From: Bacillales bacterium
GTDB taxonomy: Bacteria > Bacillota_I > Bacilli_A > RF39 > UBA660
Reading direction: 5' to 3'
Assembly: GCA_016292035.1 (NCBI GenBank)
Contig: JAEEZR010000010.1
Location: 29,535-93,534 of the forward strand
Length of the DNA stretch: 64,000 nucleotides
The stretch's first letter is position 1, and each line of letters opens with the position of its first letter. Under the pieces are notes generated by a model. That model saw only the letters and a program-made list of their open reading frames with translations. It made no database searches and was not told the DNA's origin. The position numbers were made by a program, and so were the translations under genes. Positions 2,485 to 58,577 of this stretch are shown in pieces.

Positions 2485-3273
2485 CTAGATTATTTTGGAT
2501 ATAAGGTTAAGTACAATTGCTAAAACTAGTAAACTGTCAAGTCTATCAAGTACTCCACCATGTCCTGGCATTATTGTGCCATAGTCTTTTATTTTAAAGT
2601 GTCTTTTAATAGCTGAGAATAGTAAATCTCCTGCTTGGGATACTAAAGATAATGCTATAGTAATTATTATTCCTTTTATTACTCCTACATGAAGAAGTCC
2701 TACTAATATTATAGAACTTATTATTGTAGACATTGTTACACCAACAATTAGCCCTTCTATTGTCTTATTAGGAGATATGCTTTTAGCTAATTTATGTTGT
2801 CCTATTAATTTGCCTCCAATATATGCAAATGTATCAGTTATTATTGTAATTGATAGCATGTATACAAATAAAAGTGGCTCATCTATTCTTATTAAACCTA
2901 TGCTGTTAAATCCTAGTCCAAGAAGTAATATTATTCCAACTAAGAAAAAAGCATCACTTATATTATATTTTTCATCTTTTCTATACACTATTAGAGGAAT
3001 TAGAAGTGTTAGAACTACTATTACTATTCTTTTTTCTAAATCTATATTAATATCAATAGGCCAGCAATATACCATTATTAATAGTAAACTTAGAAGTGAT
3101 AGTATCTTTATTTCTAGAGGTATAGGCTTTTCTGTTTCTTTTGCTTTTAACATTTCTAGAAGAGCAAGTATAGTTATAACTGTTGCTCCTAGATAAAACA
3201 CTTTGCCTCCTATTAGTAATATTGGAAGTAAAATTGCTACTGCCACTAGTGCACTTATTATCCTTTGTTTCAT
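2485..3273 (-). CDS. cdsA: Phosphatidate cytidylyltransferase
   Basis: Polytopic membrane protein with the C-terminal CdsA signature GDLLFSAIKRHFKIKDYGTIMPGHGGVLDRLDS. Confidence 0.9.
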   Translation of the reverse strand: MKQRIISALVAVAILLPILLIGGKVFYLGATVITILALLEMLKAKETEKPIPLEIKILSLLSLLLIMVYCWPIDINIDLEKRIVIVVLTLLIPLIVYRKDEKYNISDAFFLVGIILLLGLGFNSIGLIRIDEPLLFVYMLSITIITDTFAYIGGKLIGQHKLAKSISPNKTIEGLIVGVTMSTIISSIILVGLLHVGVIKGIIITIALSLVSQAGDLLFSAIKRHFKIKDYGTIMPGHGGVLDRLDSLLVLAIVLNLISKII

Positions 3274-3284
3274 TTAAAATCCTC

Positions 3285-4010
3285 CTAAAAGTTTAAATAT
3301 TCTATATCTTTATCTTCTTCTTTTGCTTCTTCAGTAACTTTTGAACTTACAAAACGATTTGTTTCTTCAATTTTATTAGTAGGAATCTCAGGTATTATTT
3401 CTGTTACTTCTACTCTTTCTACTTCGTCTTCTTTATAATCATTTATCGCTTTATTATAAATTGGGCTATTGTTTTTATAGTCATATTGTCCTGCTTTAAA
3501 TACAGGTACTTCTTCTTTAGGCTTTGAAGTTTCTGCTTTAAACTCATTATCTACTTTTACTTCTTCATCAGCAGCTTCATTTAAACTATTCATTTCACTT
3601 TCAGTTAGAAGTGTTACCATTTCACCTGATACATCATCAAATTCTTTTTCAACTTCTATTGAGTTTATTTTAATATAATTAAGTACTGGAAGCATTACTA
3701 TTGGAAATAATATTAATAATATTGTAAAAGCTTTACTAAGGTTAAACATTATACTTAATCTATATGATATTAGTATAAATACTATTACATTTGTTACTGG
3801 TACAAACAAAAGAACAGCCATTGCCCTATTTAGTTTAACAATATCTATTAGAACTATCAGATTATATACAGGGATAAATGATAGATTCTTATTTTTAAAA
3901 TTTTTAGAAAATACTTTATCTGTTGTAACGCAGCAAAATAAAGAATATGCTAATGTAATTACTTCAAAAAACATTATTACTTTTAAAAATCTTACAATTA
4001 TTTCGCTCAT
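3285..4010 (-). CDS. Hypothetical membrane protein with an acidic C-terminal tail
   Basis: Several N-terminal TM helices followed by a Glu/Lys-rich tail. It occupies the slot where uppS usually sits but has no UppS motifs. Confidence 0.55.
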   Translation of the reverse strand: MSEIIVRFLKVIMFFEVITLAYSLFCCVTTDKVFSKNFKNKNLSFIPVYNLIVLIDIVKLNRAMAVLLFVPVTNVIVFILISYRLSIMFNLSKAFTILLILFPIVMLPVLNYIKINSIEVEKEFDDVSGEMVTLLTESEMNSLNEAADEEVKVDNEFKAETSKPKEEVPVFKAGQYDYKNNSPIYNKAINDYKEDEVERVEVTEIIPEIPTNKIEETNRFVSSKVTEEAKEEDKDIEYLNF

Positions 4011-8534: not shown

Positions 8535-8566
8535 ATTTTTCTCCTTTTGTAATCTTAATTATTAAT

Positions 8567-8590
8567 AAAAGTACCTTTTATGGTACTTTT
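8567..8590 (-). terminator. Intrinsic terminator after pilin gene P1
   Basis: Stem aaaagtacc/ggtactttt with a 6-nt loop, running into a T-rich tract on the minus strand. It is near-identical to the hairpin after pilin P5 at 51405-51430. Confidence 0.7.
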
Positions 8591-8596
8591 ATTATT

Positions 8597-10630
8597 TTAT
8601 CTTGTAGCTAATTTATAGCATTTGCTTCCATCAGCATTATATTTAGTCCATCCACTTGGACAAGTGTATACTGTTTCTTGGCCATCTGGACAATAAGCAG
8701 TTCCTGTTCTATACACTGGTGCACATGCTCCTGCTTCACTAGCTCCATATGTAATTGTACATGAGTATGACTGAGCTACTGTATAATAATCTCCTTGATA
8801 TATATAACCTATATATCCAATGTATGCATTATAGTTGGAAGCCATTTGATTATAGTATGTTTCAAATGCAGATAATGTTTTAGTTGATTGAGAGCAGCTT
8901 CCTCCGTTAACACTACAAACTGTATAATATACTAATCCATTAGAGCTAGACATGTATTGAACATTTTGGCTTGCTGTTTCATATTCTGATGTTCCTGTGA
9001 TTTTACTATATTTAGTTCCAGGACTTGTTTTCCATGTTCTAACGTTTTGAGCACATCCCCATACTCCGTTTGGACAGTTACCTAAATTACTAATTAATAC
9101 TCCGCTTTGGTTAGTTAATGCTGGTTTACTATATTGATGATAATTATAGTTTGCATCGCATCCCCATAGTGTGTAAGCATCATATTTACATCTTATATTA
9201 CCATTTTTACATGAAGCATAACTTGATGCATTTGTTACACATACATATCCTCCTGAAGAAGAACCCAAACTTGAATCAAGTGTTAGTGTTCCTGAAGCAC
9301 ATTTCCATGCTTGTGGCGCTACTATAGTACATGTTCTAGCACTTGTTACATTTGATGCTGTTAGTGTGCTTCCAGATAAACTACATCCAGTTCCTGATAC
9401 CGTTGCACCTGTTAATGTGTAGTTAGCTAATGCACTAATAGTAAATGTTCCACTGCTACCATATTCAACTTGTTTACTAGTTGGATTACTTGAACAATTT
9501 GTGCATGTTACTGATACTGTGAATTTTTGTTTTGGAAGTGTTACTATACATGATTTGTTTTCTTTTACATTAGATATTGATAGAACTGATGCATTTAATG
9601 AGCATCCTCCAGTTACTGTTGCACCTGTTAGGGTATATCCAGTTTTTGGTGATATAGTAAAGCTTGTTTCTTCTGCATGTTCTACTTGCTGTGTTGCTGG
9701 TGTACTTGTACAGTTATTACATGTTACTCCAACACTATATACCTTCTTCTTTAAATTTATTTCACATACTGAAGCGGCTGTTACATTTTCAATATAAACT
9801 ATTCCATCTACTAGTGAGCATCCACTTCCTGATACTGTTGCTCCTTCTAAAGTATAGCCTTCACCTGGCACTATTGGGAAAGAAGCACTAGCTCCTATTT
9901 CTATTTTTTGATTTGTACTAGAACCACTACATGTATCACAAGCTATTGTTACAGTATATTTTTGTTTAGCCAATTTAACATTACATGTATTAGTTCCTTT
10001 AGCATTATGGTAAGTTAATATATTTCCTTCTAAAGTACATCCTCCAGTTACTGTGGCATCCTCAACAGAATATGTTTCATCTGGTGTTATTGTAAATAAT
10101 GCATTAGCTCCTTTAGCAACTATTACTGTAGAGTTATCTACATTACCATTTTCTACTGTTACAGATACTTTAGCACTTTCATTTGTACTAAAACAGACAC
10201 ATGATCCAGTAGAACAGTCTACTGTTCCTTTTGCTATATCATCACCGGATATATCTGTAGTAAGTGAAGCCATATCTTCATTTGAGTAACAATACTTTTC
10301 GTTAGATAGTGATAAGCTTTTTACATGTCCTGTATCATCAAGCTCAACTAAATAGTTAAATTCTGTAGTATGAATATCTAGCTTACTACATCCTAGTGAG
10401 CCAAAAGATTCATCACAGTATAAAGAACTAGATTTAGAATGAAGAGCATCTGCTTGATACTTTTTTTCTGCTTCTTTCTTTATAGATTCTACTTGTATTG
10501 CAAAAGATTTTTTTCTAGATACCTCGTATGAATTTAATACTTTAGGTATTATTAAAAGCATCAATAATCCAATAAGAGCTATTACTGCTAAAAGCTCGAT
10601 TAATGTAAACCCTCTGTTTTTTCTTTTCAT
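8597..10630 (-). CDS. Modular type IV pilin-like protein P1 (677 aa): prepilin leader, a 140-aa Cys-containing head, 4 InlB-B-repeat-like modules, and a 237-aa Cys/Tyr/Gly-rich C-terminal domain.
   Basis: MKRKNRG/FTLIELLAVIALIGLLMLL is a class III signal with Gly-1, Phe+1 and Glu+5. The start is trimmed to the ATG at 10630 because the track's 26-aa extension lies over the promoter. Repeats described under the repeat feature at 9311-10168. Confidence 0.85.
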   Translation of the reverse strand: MKRKNRGFTLIELLAVIALIGLLMLLIIPKVLNSYEVSRKKSFAIQVESIKKEAEKKYQADALHSKSSSLYCDESFGSLGCSKLDIHTTEFNYLVELDDTGHVKSLSLSNEKYCYSNEDMASLTTDISGDDIAKGTVDCSTGSCVCFSTNESAKVSVTVENGNVDNSTVIVAKGANALFTITPDETYSVEDATVTGGCTLEGNILTYHNAKGTNTCNVKLAKQKYTVTIACDTCSGSSTNQKIEIGASASFPIVPGEGYTLEGATVSGSGCSLVDGIVYIENVTAASVCEINLKKKVYSVGVTCNNCTSTPATQQVEHAEETSFTISPKTGYTLTGATVTGGCSLNASVLSISNVKENKSCIVTLPKQKFTVSVTCTNCSSNPTSKQVEYGSSGTFTISALANYTLTGATVSGTGCSLSGSTLTASNVTSARTCTIVAPQAWKCASGTLTLDSSLGSSSGGYVCVTNASSYASCKNGNIRCKYDAYTLWGCDANYNYHQYSKPALTNQSGVLISNLGNCPNGVWGCAQNVRTWKTSPGTKYSKITGTSEYETASQNVQYMSSSNGLVYYTVCSVNGGSCSQSTKTLSAFETYYNQMASNYNAYIGYIGYIYQGDYYTVAQSYSCTITYGASEAGACAPVYRTGTAYCPDGQETVYTCPSGWTKYNADGSKCYKLATR
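9311..10168 (-). repeat. Four tandem coding repeats of about 70-73 aa inside P1
   Basis: Recurring pattern (Y/F)TV(T/S)VxC(T/N)NC ... F(T/P)I ... GYTL(E/T)GATV(T/S)G(G/S)GC(S/T)L ... NVT...C. Confidence 0.85.
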
Positions 10631-10663
10631 TTTCACAATAATCAACCTCTCTACTATACCTAA

Positions 10664-10692
10664 ATTATATATCAACTTTTTTACCTTTTCAA
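10664..10692 (-). promoter_or_regulatory. Sigma-A type promoter for P1
   Basis: On the minus strand, TTGAAA, a 17-nt spacer, then TATAAT. It lies between the lepA terminator and the P1 start. Confidence 0.55.
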
Positions 10693-10693
10693 G

Positions 10694-10723
10694 AATAAAA
10701 AATAGCATATTTTGTATGCTATT
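10694..10723 (-). terminator. Intrinsic terminator after lepA
   Basis: Stem aatagcata/tatgctatt with a 5-nt loop, followed by TTTTATT on the minus strand. It overlaps the lepA TAG stop. Confidence 0.7.
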
Positions 10724-12503
10724 CTTTTTTATCTACACTAAGTACTGATAAGAATGCTTCTTGTGGAACTTCTACGCTTCCTACTTGTTTCATTCTTTTC
10801 TTACCCTCTTTTTGTTTTTCTAATAGTTTTCTTTTTCTAGATACATCTCCACCATAGCATTTTGCAAGTACATTCTTTTTCATGGCAGAAAGTGTTTCTC
10901 TTGCTATTACACGAGTTCCAATAGAAGCTTGAATAGGAACAGTAAACATTTGCCTTGGTATTATTTCTTTTAAGTTTTCTACTATTATTTTTCCTCTTTG
11001 ATATGCATTATCTTTATGTACTATAACTGATAAGGCATCTACTAAGTCTCCATTTAGTAGTATATCTAGTTTTACTAATTTACTTTCTTTATAGCCTATA
11101 AATTCATAATCAAAAGAAGCATATCCTTTTGTAGAACTTTTTAATTTATTAAAGAAGTCATATACTATTTCAGATAGTGGTAGTTCATATATAACATTTA
11201 CTCTTTTAGAATCTACATATACATTATTTATGTATTTACCTCTTTTGTCTTGGCAAATAGTCATTACGCTTCCTACATATTCATTTGGTACGAATATATT
11301 TGCTTTTACATAAGGCTCTTTAATTGTTTTGATTTTTTGTTCTTCAGGCATTTTAGTTGGGCTATCAATATATACAACATCTCCATTAGTCATTTCAACT
11401 TCATATACTACTGATGGAGAAGTTGCTATTAATTCAATATTAAATTCTCTTTCTATTCTCTCTTCTATTATTTCCATGTGAAGAAGTCCTAGAAAGCCAC
11501 ATCTAAATCCAAAACCTAAAGCATCTGATTTTTCTATTTCAAACATAAGTGATGCATCATTTAATTTTAATTTTTGAAGAGCTTCTTTTAAGTTTTCAAA
11601 CTTAGAACTATCTATCGGATATAGTCCACTGTAAACCATTGGTTTTACTTCTTTATATCCGCTTAGTGCTGGAGCATCATTTTCTTCAAGTACAATAGTG
11701 TCTCCTACTTTAACATCTTCTATTGATTTAATAGACGCTGTTATATATCCTACTTCACCTGCTGATAGTTCGTTTCTAGAGCTATCCTTTGGAGTATGTT
11801 TTCCCATAGTTAGTACTTCATATACTGCACCAGTTGCTTTCATTTTTATTTTGTCATGTAGTTTTAATTTACCATCTACTACTCTAATAAGAGCAACTAT
11901 ACCTTTATAACTATCAAAATAGCTATCAAATATAAGAGCTCTTAATGGTTTATCTTCTCCTTTAGGAGAAGGTATTCTTTTTATTACTTCATCTAGCAGT
12001 GCTTCTACTCCTTCGCCTGTTTTTCCACTTACACAAAGGATTTCATCTCTATCAAATCCTATAGTTTGTACAAGTTCATCTTTTACTCTTTCAGGGTCAG
12101 CATTTGGAAGATCTATTTTATTAAGTACTGGGATTATTGTTAAATCGTTTTCCATAGCAAGATATAAGTTAGCTAGTGTTTGGGCTTCTATACCTTGAGT
12201 TGCATCAACTACAAGAATTGCTCCTTCACATGCAGCTAAGCTTCTACTTACTTCATAAGAAAAGTCTACATGACCTGGTGTATCTATTAAGTGAAAAGTA
12301 TAATCTTTATATTTAAGCTCTACTGCATTTAATTTAATTGTTATTCCTCTTTCTCTTTCAAGATCCATATTATCTAGTAGTTGTTCTTTCATTTCTCTTT
12401 TATCTACTGCATGAGTAATCTCAAGTATTCTATCAGCTAGAGTACTCTTACCATGATCTATGTGTGCGATTATTGAAAAATTTCTTATTTTGTCTTTATT
12501 CAT
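10719..12503 (-). CDS. lepA: Elongation factor 4 (LepA)
   Basis: [21 protein letters not shown]1 motif, [13 protein letters not shown], and the LepA-specific C-terminal domain. The ATG at 12503 has a GGGAGAG RBS, which makes the track's upstream ATG at 12518 less likely. Confidence 0.95.
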
Positions 12504-12580: not shown

Positions 12581-13519
12581 TTATGAATTGTAGCAAATTG
12601 CTCTGCCGCTTTTTTCTATTTTGCAAGCTACATACGGATTTTCCTCATATACATATATGGTTCCAGTATAATCTATATCTATTCTAACTGAATCATCTGG
12701 TACTTTCATAGTTATGCCATCATTATTACAATATCCTTCAATACCTGCTTCACCAAGATCATTTAACATTTGTGCTTTAATTTTGTTTAGTGTTATAGTT
12801 TTATTAGTATCCCAATAATTTCCTGGATAACATGTCAGTTTGCCATTATAAAACGCGCATGCTTCGTGTCCTAATACATTATCATTTTTGTCTATATAAG
12901 TTCTTATTAAATAGTTAGGATAATGCCCATGTTCATGTTCGCCTCGGACTTCATCAGTTATGATATGGAAATCTTCTACGGCAAAAGGTGGAACTTCGTT
13001 TGATGCATAATAAGTAAATCCTGGATATTCTGTATCTTTGTATGACCAATAAACATAATGGTCTTTCTTTATCGTCTTTCCTCCAATACAACTACAGCTA
13101 GATGTAGTACACTCTAGCTTTCCATTTTCTGAAAACTCATCTTCATCTATTTGTGATAAATCACCGCTCTTTACAAAGCAGTAGTTAGAGTCTTCTAGAG
13201 CTACTCCTGATATTTTATTATCGCTTCCAAACATTATTACATACTTTATGCCATTATCTGATATATCAAGTTTAACTTCATCATTACATGATTCGTTTAC
13301 TCCACTGCAATAAATGTCAATGTTTTTGCCATTCATTACATCTATTTGTTTTTGCTTATCTCCTGTTTTTATTAAACTTTCTACTTGAACTTTAAATGCT
13401 TCTTTCTTTCCTTTACTAAACATTCCTAGTACATTAGGCATTATTAAAAGCATTAGTATTGCAAGTATTGCAATAACTGCTAGAAGTTCTACTAACGTAA
13501 AACCATTTTTTCTTTTCAT
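12581..13519 (-). CDS. Type IV pilin-like protein P2 (312 aa)
   Basis: MKRKNG/FTLVELLAVIAILAILMLL prepilin motif. The head domain is shared with P1 and P3-P5. The C-terminal YVYW...LIRT...GHEAC..YNGKL.C module is shared with P3 and P4. Confidence 0.85.
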   Translation of the reverse strand: MKRKNGFTLVELLAVIAILAILMLLIMPNVLGMFSKGKKEAFKVQVESLIKTGDKQKQIDVMNGKNIDIYCSGVNESCNDEVKLDISDNGIKYVIMFGSDNKISGVALEDSNYCFVKSGDLSQIDEDEFSENGKLECTTSSCSCIGGKTIKKDHYVYWSYKDTEYPGFTYYASNEVPPFAVEDFHIITDEVRGEHEHGHYPNYLIRTYIDKNDNVLGHEACAFYNGKLTCYPGNYWDTNKTITLNKIKAQMLNDLGEAGIEGYCNNDGITMKVPDDSVRIDIDYTGTIYVYEENPYVACKIEKSGRAICYNS

Positions 13520-53088: not shown

Positions 53089-53114
53089 TTAAAAAGAAGC
53101 ACAATGCGCTTCTT
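53089..53114 (-). terminator. Intrinsic terminator after the prepilin peptidase gene
   Basis: Stem aagaagc(g)c/g(a)gcttctt with a short loop, followed by TTTTT on the minus strand. Confidence 0.55.
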
Positions 53115-53860
53115 TAAAATACATAACCCATACTGGATAATATATATATTATTATGCATGATAATAATAGGAACGGTCCGAATGGAATTAGATTTTCATT
53201 ATATTTTTCATCGAGTAAGAAGTAAGCTATTAAAGCTAGAACGCTAGCTACAAATAATGAAAGAAGTCCATTAAATGTTCCAAGAGCAAGTCCTATAGGA
53301 AGCATTAATTTTACATCTCCTCCTCCAAGGCTTTCTCTTTTAAATACTTTATCTCCTACTATTTTTACTAATAACATAATTACAAATAATACTACCATTC
53401 CAACTATTTTTAATTTGTAGTCATTAAATGAACTAAATGATATATATGTTATTAGTATTAATAGAGTTGATCCAAATACTACTCTATCTGATACGTAATA
53501 ATATTTAAAGTCACTTACTGCAGTTACTGAACATGCACTTATTAATATTAGTGGCACTATTATATCCGCAGTTAATCCATAATACAAATAACTACACATA
53601 AATGTTATACCAGTAAATAATTCTACTATTAAGCTACTTATATCTATATGCGCTTTACAATATGAGCATTTACCTTTTAGGCATATATAAGATATTACTG
53701 GAATGTTCATATACCATTTAAGTGGTTTTAAGCAGTTATCGCATCTACTTCCTGGTTTTATTATACTTATATTATTTGGTATTCTATATCCTATGCAAGC
53801 ATAGAAACTTCCAAGAAGTAAACCAAGCACTAAAAATGCTCCCCCATAAAATACTGTCAT
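53114..53860 (-). CDS. Prepilin peptidase (A24 family, PilD/ComC type)
   Basis: N-terminal Cys pairs CDNC...CSYC, polytopic membrane protein, catalytic Asp contexts AVSDFKYY and GGGDVKLM. Confidence 0.88.
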   Translation of the reverse strand: MTVFYGGAFLVLGLLLGSFYACIGYRIPNNISIIKPGSRCDNCLKPLKWYMNIPVISYICLKGKCSYCKAHIDISSLIVELFTGITFMCSYLYYGLTADIIVPLILISACSVTAVSDFKYYYVSDRVVFGSTLLILITYISFSSFNDYKLKIVGMVVLFVIMLLVKIVGDKVFKRESLGGGDVKLMLPIGLALGTFNGLLSLFVASVLALIAYFLLDEKYNENLIPFGPFLLLSCIIIYILSSMGYVF

Positions 53861-53870
53861 TATATTCCTC

Positions 53871-55748
53871 CTATTTAAGTATTTCTGAACTTACGTTGTA
53901 CATTGGAACTAATACTGATATCATTATACCACCTACTACTACTGCTAGGAATACTAGTAGTATAGGTTCTACCATTGTTTTTAGAGTATTTGCTAAAGAA
54001 CGTTGTTCTCTTTGATAGTACTCACTTATTTTTTCAAGCATGCTAGCAAGTTGTCCAGTTTGTTCACCTGTTGATATCATATAATATGCAAGTTCTGGTA
54101 TAGCCCAGCTTTCCTTAAATGATAATGACATTTTTTCACCTCTTAATAGGTTTGAAATTGTATCATACATTATCATTTTATAGAATTCATTATTAGTTAT
54201 TTTACTTAAGATATCAATTGTATCTGTAAGTAATACATTGTTTTTATTAAGTACTGCGAATGTTTTCGCAAATAAGTTCATTTCATTATAGATAACTATG
54301 TTACCTACTACTGGTATATGCATGTATGCATATTGAACTACTGTTCTAAATGCTTTTACTTTCTTATATAGTATTGAGAATACCAATATAATAGCTAATA
54401 TAGCTACAAATAATATACCAACATTATTTCTTAAGAAGTCTGATAGTTTTAATAAGAATAATGTTATACCTGTCATTTCTGCATTCATTGAATCATATAC
54501 TTTTTTGAATTGAGGTACTATGTATACAACCATGAATGTTATAACAGTTACTGCAAATATAAGTACTATAGATGGATAAGTTAATGCACTTATCATTTGT
54601 TTTCTTGTAACTTCTTTTTCTTGATAATAATTTGACATATCATCTAGAGTTCCTTCTAGATCACCTATTAATTCAGCTGCTTTTATCATGTTAATTAAAA
54701 GAGCTGGGAACACTTTGTTTTGTTTTTCTAATGCAGATGAGAAGTTTTCACCTACAGATAATTCATATATTAATGAAGAATATACCTTTTTATATTTTCT
54801 TCTATTATCTTGTTTAGCTAATATTTTAATAGCGTCTATTAATGGAATACCAGCTTTCAAATATGTGGATAATTGTGTTAACCAGAATACTAAGTCTTTA
54901 TTCTTCATTTGTTCATTCATGTGTGATTTCTCACCATGTATGAAATTTATCCACCAGTTAGTAGTTATTTCATATACTTCATATCCTTCATCAATTAAGA
55001 ATGAGTGTACATCTAGTCTAGATAAAGATGGGAAGTATCCTGTTATTAATTTGCCTTCTTTATTTCTTGCTAAATATCTATATACTTGTTTCTTTTCAGT
55101 TCTTTCAGCATCTTTACCAAATTTATCAATAAATAATACTTCAAGTTCTCTTTCTTTTTTATTTTTATAGTATTTAACTAATGATATATTATTCCATTTG
55201 TTTACAAAGTAATTAGATATAGACTTAGGTGCATTTTTAGTTGCATATGTTGTCTTTTCTCTAATCATTTTAATTCTTTTAGCAGATTTATCTACAAATC
55301 CACTAAGTGAACTATATATAAATATAGGGAAAGAATAGAATATTACTTTTAATACTTTAAATGAACCTCTTCCGATTGCCTTTAGTAGTAAATATAGCTC
55401 AGTTACTATTGGTTTAAGAGAATATTTGTATACAGCTTTGCCTACTATTCCTACATATTTAGCAATAAACTTAGATGCATACATTATTGCTACAAAAATA
55501 TAACTAAATACAGTAAAAATATTAGTGACTAAAAAGTCAAATGCTTTAAATAAACCTACTGATGTGTATGATAGTGTTTTTATTATTTCGCCAAATAATC
55601 CTACTACTATTTTTTTTATTAATAAAAATATACTTTTAAAAAAGTCTACAAAGAATTTAACTATAGGATTCATATTCCTATTAGTAGAGACGGAACTATT
55701 CTTTTTTTTCTTGGTTTGCTTTGGTTTTGCTTTTTTATATGTTTTCAC
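53871..55748 (-). CDS. Type IV filament platform protein (GspF/PilC/ComGB family) with a 220-aa N-terminal extension
   Basis: GTG start with GGAGG 8 nt upstream. The canonical N-domain begins at YRYLARNKEGKLITG (aa ~223). There are two T2SSF repeats (LSTYLKAGIPLIDAIKILAKQ and FAVLNKNNVLLTDTIDILSKI) and 3 core TM helices. Confidence 0.88.
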   Translation of the reverse strand: MKTYKKAKPKQTKKKKNSSVSTNRNMNPIVKFFVDFFKSIFLLIKKIVVGLFGEIIKTLSYTSVGLFKAFDFLVTNIFTVFSYIFVAIMYASKFIAKYVGIVGKAVYKYSLKPIVTELYLLLKAIGRGSFKVLKVIFYSFPIFIYSSLSGFVDKSAKRIKMIREKTTYATKNAPKSISNYFVNKWNNISLVKYYKNKKERELEVLFIDKFGKDAERTEKKQVYRYLARNKEGKLITGYFPSLSRLDVHSFLIDEGYEVYEITTNWWINFIHGEKSHMNEQMKNKDLVFWLTQLSTYLKAGIPLIDAIKILAKQDNRRKYKKVYSSLIYELSVGENFSSALEKQNKVFPALLINMIKAAELIGDLEGTLDDMSNYYQEKEVTRKQMISALTYPSIVLIFAVTVITFMVVYIVPQFKKVYDSMNAEMTGITLFLLKLSDFLRNNVGILFVAILAIILVFSILYKKVKAFRTVVQYAYMHIPVVGNIVIYNEMNLFAKTFAVLNKNNVLLTDTIDILSKITNNEFYKMIMYDTISNLLRGEKMSLSFKESWAIPELAYYMISTGEQTGQLASMLEKISEYYQREQRSLANTLKTMVEPILLVFLAVVVGGIMISVLVPMYNVSSEILK

Positions 55749-55864: not shown

Positions 55865-57670
55865 TTATTCTTCACTTTTGATAAAGTCTACGCTTGTTGT
55901 GTCAATTACGTTTCCTTGTTCATCTTTTAAGATTAAATCTACTTCGTAATATCCATCTTTGTCTGCATCAACTACTACTTCATCTAATTGTGAGAAACTA
56001 TTAGCATCTTTAAGTTCAACTGGAGCACCATTAACATCATCAATTACTTCACCGTTGTATTTAATAGTTACTGTTGAGCCTTCTGCTTTTTCTTTAACTA
56101 CTGCAGTTATTGTTCCATTAAATGTAACATTTTCTCCTGCACCATAAGTATTTTCATATGTTTCAACAAATCTATCTGTTGATTCTTGTTCTTCAAGATT
56201 AATGTACTCATAATATGATGATATGTCTTCAATTGTTGGTGAATCTACTGAACAGTAATCATATCCGCATCTTTCGTAGTATACAGTGTATTCATCTAAT
56301 TCAGTATCATCTGTTAATACGTAGTTGTTAGAATATTGATCAATAACTATTTCTGTTGGATATGTAGGTGTTTCTTCATATACTTCCATAGCATAATCTG
56401 TTGTTTTAACTGTTTTTCCTTCTTCATCTTTTAGAGTAAATGTAAGTAAGTAATTTCCTTCTTTACTTGCAGTCATGTCATTAGAATATTCTATATTACT
56501 TGAAGAAACATTTACTGTATATAGTAAACCTTGTGCAGTTTCTGAGAAAGTGTCTACTCCATTTTCATTATTCCATGAAAGTGTTCCAGCTCCTTCATAA
56601 GTTACATACATTTTATAATCTTTGCTTTCATCCAATTCACTACTTGAAACTGATACTGAGAATGGTGCTTCTACAGCTTTTATACGTTCAGATGTTCCAT
56701 CACTTAATTCAATGAATGTATACTTACTGTTATCTTTGTCTAGATATATAAGTTGTGTTCCTGAAGCGTATGGATTATCAACTTTTGCAGTATCTTCTCC
56801 TAAATCAATGTTATTGTTAGATGGATCAACAATTATTGAAGGGCTTCCTTCTATTTCGTTATTATTTATAACACTTGCATTGTTTGTAGTTGATACTTCA
56901 CTTGAGCTTCCACTGATTCTTGCTCTTGAATCACTATATTCATTTTGATTTGTAATGTTTATGTTATCATTAACAACAACTTTAGAATCGTTGATAGTTA
57001 ATGCATAATAAGAAGCATCTACATCCATTTTTCCAATAGTAACATCAGTTGAATCTACTATTTGTATTGCCACTCTATCTTCATAGCTTCTTCTTTCAGT
57101 TATATTAACATTTAAATTTGTTAGTGATACTTTTTGATTAGTATTAATTTTAATACCATATGATTTAATTAGTTGTTTTGAGAAGTTTATTGTTTTTCCT
57201 TTTCCATCAATTGTTACTTCTCTATCAATTAAAATTGGTTTTGATAAACCTGTTAAGTCATTTTGTAATTCTAGTGTAGTAGCGGCATTTTCAGTTTGTG
57301 CTAGAGTCAATACTAATTCTTCATAAGAAGATATTTCGTCTTTTGTTATTACATTACCATTATCATCTCTAGTTACACCAAATAATGTCTCACTTACTAC
57401 AGTTCCATCTGCTTTTACCCATTTACCAGTTTCAGTATTATATTTAACTATTGATGCTGGGTTAATTGATGGTGGTAATAATTCAGCAGTAATCCTATTT
57501 ACATATATTCTATCTGCAGCTATATAAATGTTGTCGATTTCTGCTCTATTATTTACTGTTGTAGTAGCCATTGTTTTAGCTTCACTTTGTGTTATAATAG
57601 TTGCTTTTGCATTAGTAAGTGGCACTAATAATAGAATTGTAAATAGTATCCCATATATTATTTTTTTCAT
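55865..57670 (-). CDS. Secreted protein (601 aa), possibly a beta-helix region plus acidic Ig-like C-terminal domains
   Basis: Sec signal MKKIIYGILFTILLLVPLTNAKA. VTIDGKGKTINF and short repeated V/I-x-V-x-N rungs suggest a parallel beta-helix. No anchor motif. The fold call is tentative. Confidence 0.7.
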   Translation of the reverse strand: MKKIIYGILFTILLLVPLTNAKATIITQSEAKTMATTTVNNRAEIDNIYIAADRIYVNRITAELLPPSINPASIVKYNTETGKWVKADGTVVSETLFGVTRDDNGNVITKDEISSYEELVLTLAQTENAATTLELQNDLTGLSKPILIDREVTIDGKGKTINFSKQLIKSYGIKINTNQKVSLTNLNVNITERRSYEDRVAIQIVDSTDVTIGKMDVDASYYALTINDSKVVVNDNINITNQNEYSDSRARISGSSSEVSTTNNASVINNNEIEGSPSIIVDPSNNNIDLGEDTAKVDNPYASGTQLIYLDKDNSKYTFIELSDGTSERIKAVEAPFSVSVSSSELDESKDYKMYVTYEGAGTLSWNNENGVDTFSETAQGLLYTVNVSSSNIEYSNDMTASKEGNYLLTFTLKDEEGKTVKTTDYAMEVYEETPTYPTEIVIDQYSNNYVLTDDTELDEYTVYYERCGYDYCSVDSPTIEDISSYYEYINLEEQESTDRFVETYENTYGAGENVTFNGTITAVVKEKAEGSTVTIKYNGEVIDDVNGAPVELKDANSFSQLDEVVVDADKDGYYEVDLILKDEQGNVIDTTSVDFIKSEE

Positions 57671-57689
57671 TTTTTCTCCTTCCTTTATT

Positions 57690-58577
57690 TTATCCTATAA
57701 TTGCTTTTTTAACATTATAAGTTGTATTGTTTAGTTTTATTTTTGCTACTGAGTTAATTTGATCTTTATCAACTATTATAGCTTTTATACTTTCATCATA
57801 TCTTCCAAGATATTTGTCAGCGGCATTATATACTGCATATACTTCTTTAGCTTGTGCTTCAGTTAATTCTGTGTCATTCTTTATAAGTATTATCTTGTAA
57901 GAAATATCAAGTCCATCTACAGCCTCATATCTGTATTTATAATCATCTAGTACAGTTATTGTTACTGTAGCCATTTTACCAGAGTCGCTACTTTTAACAG
58001 TTATAACAGCTTTACCTGGCTTAACAGCAGTTACTGTACCTTTAGCATCAACTTTTGCAACTGCTTCATTATCTGATGAGTAAGTTAATCCAGTGTTTAG
58101 TACGCCACTAGGATATACGCTTGCACCTATTTCATAAGTACTGCCTATTTCTAGATTAACACTTGTTGCTTTAACATTTACTTTAGTTACAGTTAGTTTA
58201 TAGCAAGAGCAACTTTCTGTATTTAAAGCATATCCTTTATCACAAGTTAGTGTGCAAACACTTGCTACCGGTTCAGTGGGTTTTTCTTCTTTACTAGGTT
58301 CTTTTTTATTCCATTTTGCAACTAAAACCATATCTTCAGTAACTTCTAGATCAAAGTCATATTTTTCTCCATCTAGTTCCCATCTTGCAAAAGAATATCC
58401 TTCTTTAGTTGGATCTTCAGGCTTAGTAACTTTTCCTCCTTTTTCTACATTTTGGCTTTGTACTTTAGTACCACCATTACTATCAAATTCTACTAAGTAT
58501 TCTTTCTTAGAACAACTACATGCAGTTAAGACAGTAAGTGCAAATACTAAAAGCACTGCTATTTTTAGTTTTTTCAT
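57690..58577 (-). CDS. Lipoprotein with a Listeria-Bacteroides (Flg_new) repeat, a CxC Cys-cluster and a Big_2-like Ig domain
   Basis: Lipobox LTAC. YLVEFDSNGGTKV...PTKEGYSFARWELDGEKYDF...MVLVAKW is the classic Flg_new repeat. CTLTCDKGYALNTESCSC cluster. ...AVAKVDAKGTVTAVKPGKAVITVKS is Big_2-like. Confidence 0.8.
   Translation of the reverse strand: MKKLKIAVLLVFALTVLTACSCSKKEYLVEFDSNGGTKVQSQNVEKGGKVTKPEDPTKEGYSFARWELDGEKYDFDLEVTEDMVLVAKWNKKEPSKEEKPTEPVASVCTLTCDKGYALNTESCSCYKLTVTKVNVKATSVNLEIGSTYEIGASVYPSGVLNTGLTYSSDNEAVAKVDAKGTVTAVKPGKAVITVKSSDSGKMATVTITVLDDYKYRYEAVDGLDISYKIILIKNDTELTEAQAKEVYAVYNAADKYLGRYDESIKAIIVDKDQINSVAKIKLNNTTYNVKKAIIG

Follow-up and report, generated by a model that had tools for sequence, protein, structure and literature searches.

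A modular pilin-type protein from gut Bacilli with a rare cysteine-rich end domain whose core differs between strains

The P1 locus

We analysed the gene P1, which lies beside lepA in a 64,000-nucleotide (nt) stretch of DNA, here called the window, from a Bacillales bacterium (assembly GCA_016292035.1, contig JAEEZR010000010.1, positions 29,535-93,534 of the forward strand). As judged from its sequence, P1 encodes a type IV pilin head followed by a stalk of four modules and by a Cys/Tyr-rich end domain, the tip, whose core is replaced as a whole between strains of one species. The features of the locus are given below in window positions; residue numbers of P1 count from ATG 10630.

8597-10636, minus strand: coding sequence of P1, 679 amino acids (aa) from GTG 10636 or 677 aa from ATG 10630; stop codon at 8597-8599
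10646-10652, minus strand: putative ribosome-binding site AGAGAGG, read from the sequence, 9 nt upstream of GTG 10636
10664-10692, minus strand: sigma-70-like promoter TTGAAA-17-TATAAT, 11 of 12 positions matched, the best site in the region
10694-10730: terminator hairpin of lepA, an inverted repeat after the lepA stop codon and just before the P1 promoter
8563-8594, minus strand: intrinsic terminator hairpin of P1, with a GTACC...GGTAC stem that recurs behind P5 and behind the orthologues
10466-10636, minus strand: class III signal peptide and long alpha-1 helix (PF07963, TIGR02532; helices modelled at aa 10-32 and 37-62)
10175-10465, minus strand: globular portion of the pilin head (aa 56-152), with 6 Cys; between species it evolves faster than the rest of P1; predicted local distance difference test (pLDDT) score of the model <50
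9308-10174, minus strand: stalk of four ~72-aa modules (aa 153-441), predicted tandem beta-grasp, divergent InlB B-repeat-like
9197-9307, minus strand: N-terminal frame of the tip, WKCxSGTLTxDxxxGSSSGxYVCxTNAS..., kept in tips of types A, B and C
8666-9196, minus strand: core of the tip (type A), replaced between strains; identity 26% (aa) and 32-53% (nt) for contigs L001/L088 versus L087
8600-8665, minus strand: C-terminal frame of the tip, YxCPSGWTxYxxxxxKCYKxATR, common to tip types A to D

The open reading frame (ORF) listing gives P1 as 8597-10708 on the minus strand. An earlier note on this DNA had placed the gene at 8597-10630, from ATG 10630. The gene is intact, but its start is probably GTG 10636, because the ribosome-binding site lies 9 nt from this codon and 15 nt from the ATG, the database copy of P1 (P0007) is 679 aa long, and the leaders of the orthologues have 9 residues. 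The promoter (10692-10664, 11 of 12 positions) and the hairpin at 8563-8594 bear out the suggestion that P1 has control signals of its own. The core of this hairpin, AAAGTACC(A/T)TAAAAGGTACTTTT, is common to the 3' flanks of P1 and of its paralogue in the window, P5 (51429-53030), over 33 nt at 91% identity; the GTACC/GGTAC core recurs, diverged, after the orthologue on contig L088. A duplication that took in the 3' flank had been proposed from this likeness. The common core does exist, but the match is short, and it therefore argues only weakly for such an event.

Pilin head and stalk

P1 begins with the class III signal motif MKRKNRG/FTLIELLAV, with G-1, F+1 and E+5 all in place. The leader, M(K)MKRKNRG/FTLIELLAVIALIGLLMLLIIP, fits the rule for type IV pilins, in which a basic leader ending in Gly is followed by ~21 hydrophobic residues with Phe+1 and Glu+5. 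P1 scored 31.6 bits against PF07963 (cut-off 21.2) and 27.4 against TIGR02532 (cut-off 16.3), and the next-best family matches, GspG, ComGC and ComGD, cover only the first ~60 residues. Glu5 and the full alpha-1 helix are kept in all five paralogues in the window and in the orthologues. By these sequence features P1 is a pilin-type protein, an intact prepilin of 679 aa.

The first 441 residues of P1 and P5 are 47% identical (206/441, E 4e-126) and the similarity ends exactly at aa 441, so that the two proteins have, as had been proposed, the same head and four-module stalk. The modules of the P1 stalk are 71-73 aa long, with direct repeats spaced 216-219 nt in the DNA, and carry 2-4 Cys each. 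A full-length AlphaFold model of P1, built from seven sequences, reached pLDDT 84-93 over all four stalk modules and did not attain 50 in either the head or the tip; in the head it placed helices within residues 10-62 and strands at 83-87, 92-97 and 103-108, at pLDDT only 31-48. When the stalk was compared with the Protein Data Bank (PDB) using Foldseek, the matches were tandem beta-grasp rods from surface proteins of Gram-positive bacteria, namely Bacillus anthracis TIE (6fwv, probability 1.0), YwfG (7yl4, 0.99), SHIRT (7avh, 0.89) and the InlB B-repeat (7pv9/9qr4, 0.84-0.94), together with the di-ubiquitin-like ISG15. PF18998 (Flg_new_2, the InlB B-repeat) was matched weakly by 8 of 17 modules (best E 0.028); single P1 modules fell below its gathering threshold, and whole P1 did not match it at E values up to 1. 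Protein P0022, however, was matched to the P1 stalk with a query made of the P1 head and stalk (E 1.3e-8), and itself scores 45 bits on PF18998, above the cut-off. From the Foldseek matches, the weak PF18998 matches and this bridging protein, the P1 stalk is predicted to be a divergent, cysteine-bearing rod of the InlB B-repeat type.

An N-V-T sequon (SNVTSxxTC) stands at the same place in nearly every stalk module, both at 9308-10174 and in the paralogues. CxxC opens modules 2-4 and is absent from module 1. Structure, glycosylation or redox may lie behind this conservation.

Stalk modules are also found on the non-pilin proteins P0006, P0015 and P0022 and on the ORF at 2612-3718 of contig L089. 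P1 thus has, as far as sequence can tell, the make-up that defines a modular pilin in the sense of Raynaud et al. 2021, since both the stalk modules and the tip that come after its pilin module are shared with proteins other than pilins. A head-plus-stalk profile run against GTDB genomes returned only matches to the N-terminal helix, in unrelated pilins and in distant uncultured Bacilli (CAG-433, CAG-524), and no close relative.

The tip domain and its relatives

The tip comprises aa 442-677 (236 aa, nt 8600-9307) and is unrelated to the tail of P5. It is made up of 12.7% Ser, 11.9% Tyr, 10.2% Gly, 10.2% Thr, 7.2% Asn and 5.9% Cys, with 14 Cys in all. Both the end of the similarity to P5 and the composition agree with the earlier description of a larger, unrelated end domain rich in Cys, Tyr, Gly, Ser and Asn. 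The profile searches and structure prediction proposed at that time tied the domain to no housekeeping family, as it matched nothing in Pfam, NCBIfam or the PDB sequences. An AlphaFold model of the tip alone (4 sequences) reached pLDDT 43, and the tip was no better modelled within the full-length protein. Foldseek of the tip model gave noise only (E >0.05, probability <0.2), and we claim no fold for it.

We searched for relatives of the tip in several collections. Among 5.8e9 clustered proteins, the search returned only P1 itself, P0008 (83% identity) and P0009 (52%), and an exhaustive phmmer search of 1.84e9 representatives returned only P0008 and a 146-aa fragment, P0010 (39%). With the second tip type, type B (see below), as protein query, P0008 was the only match. 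A profile of the tip had no match in GTDB species genomes or viral contigs, and the JGI metagenomes held one locus, L083. Across the proteins, GTDB genomes, JGI metagenomes and viral contigs searched, the P1 tip is therefore very rare, with a handful of copies from gut metagenomes.

The tip is not unique, contrary to what had been claimed for it. All its versions are bracketed by WKCxSGTLTxDxxxGxSSGxYxCVTNA on the N-terminal side and YxCPSGWTxYxxxxxKCYKxAT on the C-terminal side. Four types of core share this frame, each with an even number of Cys (14 or 16). P0012/P0033 has a pilin head, two modules and a framed 164-aa core with 16 Cys. In P0014 a framed core of 195 aa, also with 16 Cys, occupies an internal position, with a further stalk module after it. 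P0009 ends in a type A-like tip (54%), which is preceded by GCC2-like Cys repeats, an FN3-like region and an N-terminus that is not of the pilin kind (MKNKMYLIIAVATLIAFTVAGTYAFF). We call the head of P0009 no more than non-pilin, because its sole resemblance to the SipW class is the signal-peptide motif AGTYAFF; Pfam, NCBIfam and the PDB gave no support for a TasA/camelysin assignment, and BLAST found no similarity to P0006.

Contig L089 bears two further genes of this kind. The P0033 pilin, with its two modules and type C framed tip, follows a homologue of the 233-aa hypothetical protein encoded in the window and so occupies the place that the pilin P2 has there. Directly downstream of P0033, the ORF at 2612-3718 encodes a textbook SipW-class signal (ISLAYFTSD), a CarboxypepD_reg-like domain that falls below the Pfam cut-off and then P1-type stalk modules. 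Since this ORF adjoins a framed-tip pilin, carriers of the same modules with pilin heads and with SipW-type heads are neighbours in more than one genome.

Replacement of the tip core between strains

The arrangement lepA / P1 / DUF2179 gene / dnaG / rpoD, or its ends, was found on six contigs (L001, L084, L088, L083, L087 and L085/L086), and the order is kept in L001, L083, L084, L087 and L088. This conserved synteny indicates that, in two species or more, P1 has long been a stable resident between lepA and the DUF2179 gene. The gene is intact on all six independent contigs that hold all or part of it, and the ratio of nonsynonymous to synonymous substitution (omega) is well below 1; decay to a pseudogene, which the earlier note had named as a possible objection, was accordingly rejected.

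Contigs L001, L087 and L088 come from different samples and belong to one species, because their flanks are 97-100% identical at the nt level. As can be seen from a comparison of L001 with L087, the P1 proteins of this species differ sharply in one part only. Identity is 94% (aa) in the head and 94% in the stalk, and falls to 84% in the N-terminal frame of the tip (type A versus type B) and to 26% in the core (49/187; 32-53% at the nt level). It rises again to 73% over the last 22 residues, which form the C-terminal frame, and downstream of the ORF the DNA is back to 97-100% identity. The type B core is joined to these flanks in L083 and again in L087, which were assembled independently, and is also present in the fragment P0010, so that an assembly chimera can be dismissed. 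Mis-binning of L083 and L087 from a different species is unlikely as well, since each has the core and the 97-100% identical flanks on a single contig. The two types of core are homologous (tblastn E 7e-38) and have 14 Cys each.

We compared the window with L088, both of which carry type A tips. Their housekeeping genes are separated by a synonymous divergence (dS) of 0.5-1.1, and on sequence grounds the window organism is a sister species of L088. The tip core is 92% identical (aa) between them, with omega 0.077 and dS 0.72, in contrast to the stalk, which is 68% identical with omega 0.35; omega was 0.081 for lepA and 0.096 for dnaG. Comparison of the window with L001 gave the same ranking of constraint. 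Within type A, the tip core is thus the most conserved part of P1, under constraint at the level of LepA. The comparison proposed earlier, for diversifying selection in the terminal domain relative to the stalk, thus gave no sign of gradual diversifying selection in the tip: the core is better conserved than the stalk and than the head globule (60%). Each tip class is strongly constrained, and the sequences indicate that tip variation is whole-core replacement between conserved frames and not gradual diversification.

The type A tip of L088 is itself uneven. At window positions 9140-9095 and 8932-8843 its identity to the window (0.91-0.93) exceeds that to the conspecific L001 (0.79-0.89), and this mosaic suggests recombination between species inside the tip.

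Several other differences between the copies of P1 were observed. The head globule is 50-73% (nt) and 60% (aa) identical between the window and the sister species, with dS ~1.9, compared with 80-90% (nt) for neighbouring housekeeping genes; this divergence may reflect past recombination or selection on an exposed surface. At the junction of head and stalk, 8 residues (VCFSTKES) that are kept in L087 (435-2474), L088 (2681-4720) and the window are missing from L001 (866-2881), and the loss removes one Cys of a conserved CxC and leaves an odd number of Cys. In L088 (24-2597) a 237-aa hypothetical protein is encoded directly upstream of lepA with no P2-type pilin between them, in contrast to window positions 12581-13519. 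P2 may therefore be an insertion in the window lineage or may have been lost in the other.

The sequencing runs that hold P1 are labelled as gut metagenome. In the DNA runs, from four samples, P1 had a depth of 2-4 fragments, which were identical to the window allele without a single difference. We found no RNA run that holds P1.

Pilus genes in the window

The window contains five prepilin genes, P1 included, and their products are all at least 312 aa long. Directly upstream of P5 lie the genes for a prepilin peptidase, PilD (53114-53860; A24_N_bact and Peptidase_A24), and for a PilC/GspF platform protein of 625 aa (53871-55748; T2SSF/GspF); P1 is 40 kb away. The platform protein has ~220 extra residues at its N-terminus, with the match to the GspF model starting at aa 217-223. 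Upstream of the platform gene, the region 55865-58577 encodes two proteins, one of 601 aa that has a pectate-lyase-like adhesive domain (PF20585) and one of 295 aa that has an Flg_new repeat and a Big_2 domain. These are probably further surface or adhesive proteins near the pilus genes.

Discussion

The above results lead us to favour, with somewhat more confidence than doubt, the view that P1 is a modular type IV pilin adhesin in which the tip serves as an exchangeable specificity cassette. The leader, a class III signal peptide of the processed kind, would be cut by a prepilin peptidase such as the PilD encoded in the window, and the head would then insert P1 into a type IV filament, in all likelihood at the end of the fibre or close to it. 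The four beads of the stalk would hold the end domain ~10-15 nm off the fibre, where this domain, stabilized by disulfides, may bind an external ligand, either a glycan or a protein, on the host, in mucus or on another cell. Homologous recombination could be anchored in the conserved frames, allowing whole cores to swap between strains and carrier proteins, so that specificity would change and the part needed for assembly would be left untouched. The earlier note had likewise seen a probable ligand-binding tip in the variable end domain. The difference between strains (26% identity in the core versus 94% in the head and stalk) fits a tip that determines specificity; the binding itself we infer.

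Several points weigh against this view. Filament formation, processing and binding are deduced rather than observed, and the organism is uncultured. No PilB-type ATPase was found among the window ORFs of at least 150 aa that were scanned, and no small conventional major pilin is encoded within the 64 kb; all five pilins of the window are large, so a major subunit does not single itself out. The alpha-beta pilin fold of the head is predicted without confidence (pLDDT <50), and any binding site placed on the tip would rest on a similarly unconfident model. The 14 Cys of the tip, extracellular in the protein of an anaerobe, would need an oxidizing pathway. Finally, two allele classes only are seen, on a handful of contigs, and balancing selection at the population level is therefore a conjecture.

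The same gaps in the pilus gene set would be expected if P1 were not a filament subunit, and its class III signal peptide did no more than export a long adhesin or anchor it in the membrane, the wall or a short pseudopilus. Archaeal sugar-binding proteins carry class III signal peptides and offer a parallel. Neither a PilB ATPase nor a small major pilin was found in the window, whose five pilin-like genes are all large, and the payload evidently needs no fibre, since the same stalk and tip modules occur on proteins with ordinary or SipW-like signal peptides (P0006, P0009 and the L089 ORF). We nevertheless consider this unlikely, because a PilC/GspF platform protein and PilD are encoded beside the paralogue P5, and because Glu5 and the full alpha-1 helix, which are important for polymerization, are kept throughout the five paralogues and the orthologues. 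It is also conceivable, with still lower probability, that P1 is itself the major or shaft subunit, and that the fibre is a 'bottle brush' with many stalks and tips along its length. The lack of a small major pilin in the window could be explained in this way, as could the one type of head common to the five paralogues and the strong promoter-like site that P1 has to itself. The head globule, moreover, is the part that diverges most between species (60% aa, 50-73% nt), as is typical of the exposed surfaces of major pilins. An appendage of 520 aa on every subunit would, however, be sterically demanding; modular pilins have been argued to sit at the fibre tip (PMC8179133); and 40 kb separate P1 from the genes for the platform protein and the peptidase.

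The replacement of the core behind a constant N-terminal carrier is also reminiscent of polymorphic toxins, and the variable domain might be a toxin or a bacteriocin-like effector delivered by the fibre. We regard this as very improbable. There is no co-varying immunity gene: the DUF2179 gene starts 56-62 nt downstream, behind the terminator, strains of types A and B share it at 97-100% identity, and there is no small ORF between it and P1. A toxin-immunity pair was rejected on this ground, as the downstream gene is the same in both kinds of strain and only a terminator intervenes. The tip matches no toxin or enzyme family in Pfam, NCBIfam or the PDB and shows no catalytic motif, its Tyr, Gly, Ser and Cys composition is typical of binding domains, and types A and B are still homologous, with equal numbers of Cys. 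Just as improbable is a programme that generates tip diversity within each genome, by shufflon inversion, by pilS-like silent cassettes or by a diversity-generating retroelement. PilV of IncI plasmids has its tip switched by a programme of this sort (PMC9045228), and the conserved frames could be sites of recombination. The window, however, holds no second copy of the tip, full or partial, by tblastn or blastn, which led us to reject silent cassettes. A shufflon was rejected as well, since no inverted repeats flank the tip, which has no second copy in the window and is followed directly by the terminator and the DUF2179 gene. A retroelement would leave adenine-specific substitutions, in contrast to the global divergence of types A and B (26% aa identity with indels), and no template repeat of the tip DNA is present in the window, so that this model was also rejected. 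Furthermore, the window allele was invariant in four samples.

Returning to the modular adhesin, a bolder form of this reading is possible, although we think it rather less likely than not to hold in full. The framed tip may represent an undescribed binding fold that acts as a portable cassette, with ancient A and B (perhaps also C and D) classes maintained by balancing selection in gut Bacilli. Frame recombination would move these cassettes between strains, between species and between two kinds of carrier, one with a type IV pilin head and the other with a SipW/TasA-like or Sec-type head. If true, the tip would define a new family of disulfide-rich binding domains.

Modular pilins are known, but the evolution of their payloads has barely been studied, especially in uncultured monoderm gut bacteria. 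The P1 locus can be seen as a natural experiment in this respect: at the same place, near-identical assembly and stalk parts are joined to two deeply diverged, individually constrained tip cores, and one tip of the P1 type recurs on a protein that is not a pilin. Should the tips prove to bind different ligands, of the host or of microbes, the locus would show gut commensals changing their colonization or partner specificity by cassette exchange.

Comparison with known systems

The modular pilins PilB, with a von Willebrand factor A (vWA) module, and PilC, with a lectin module, have been described in Streptococcus sanguinis (Raynaud et al. 2021, PMC8179133). The same study documents grafted adhesive modules, proposes for them a role in adhesion from the tip of the fibre, and mentions multi-domain modular pilins as well as modules without a database signature. 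Like PilB and PilC, P1 belongs to a monoderm and appears to join an N-terminal class III pilin module to C-terminal modules that are not specific to pili. Unlike them, it has five extra domains (four predicted beta-grasp beads and the tip) instead of one, and its tip is an orphan Cys-rich domain whose core is swapped between near-identical strains and which is also found on a non-pilin carrier.

The stalk resembles the rods of the InlB B-repeat (7pv9), YwfG (7yl4), TIE (6fwv) and SHIRT (7avh) in its ~70-aa tandem beta-grasp modules, which were predicted confidently. It differs from PF18998 rods in that its modules stay under the Pfam cut-off, contain Cys and are mounted on a pilin head.

Discrete allele classes are also a feature of PapG (classes I-III) and FimH, the two-domain adhesins of chaperone-usher pili. 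As in these proteins, a part that would be incorporated into the fibre is combined in P1 with a distal domain, putatively the binding one, whose allele classes have diverged deeply within one species. P1 differs from them in fibre system, in fold and in phylum.

The PilV tip adhesins of the type IVb pili of IncI1/IncI2 conjugative plasmids (R64, TP114) are switched by a shufflon (PMC9045228). P1 is similar to PilV, a minor pilin, in that its N-terminal part is constant and its C-terminal end comes in alternative forms, which in PilV determine what the pilus binds. In PilV, however, Rci inverts adjacent segments within one genome, in contrast to the variation of P1, which is allelic between strains; in the window the P1 tip is accompanied by neither alternative segments nor inverted repeats, and the protein sequences are unrelated. 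By analogy, the shufflon-switched PilV would be the nearest functional precedent for the alternative tips of a pilin, reached here by a different genetic mechanism.

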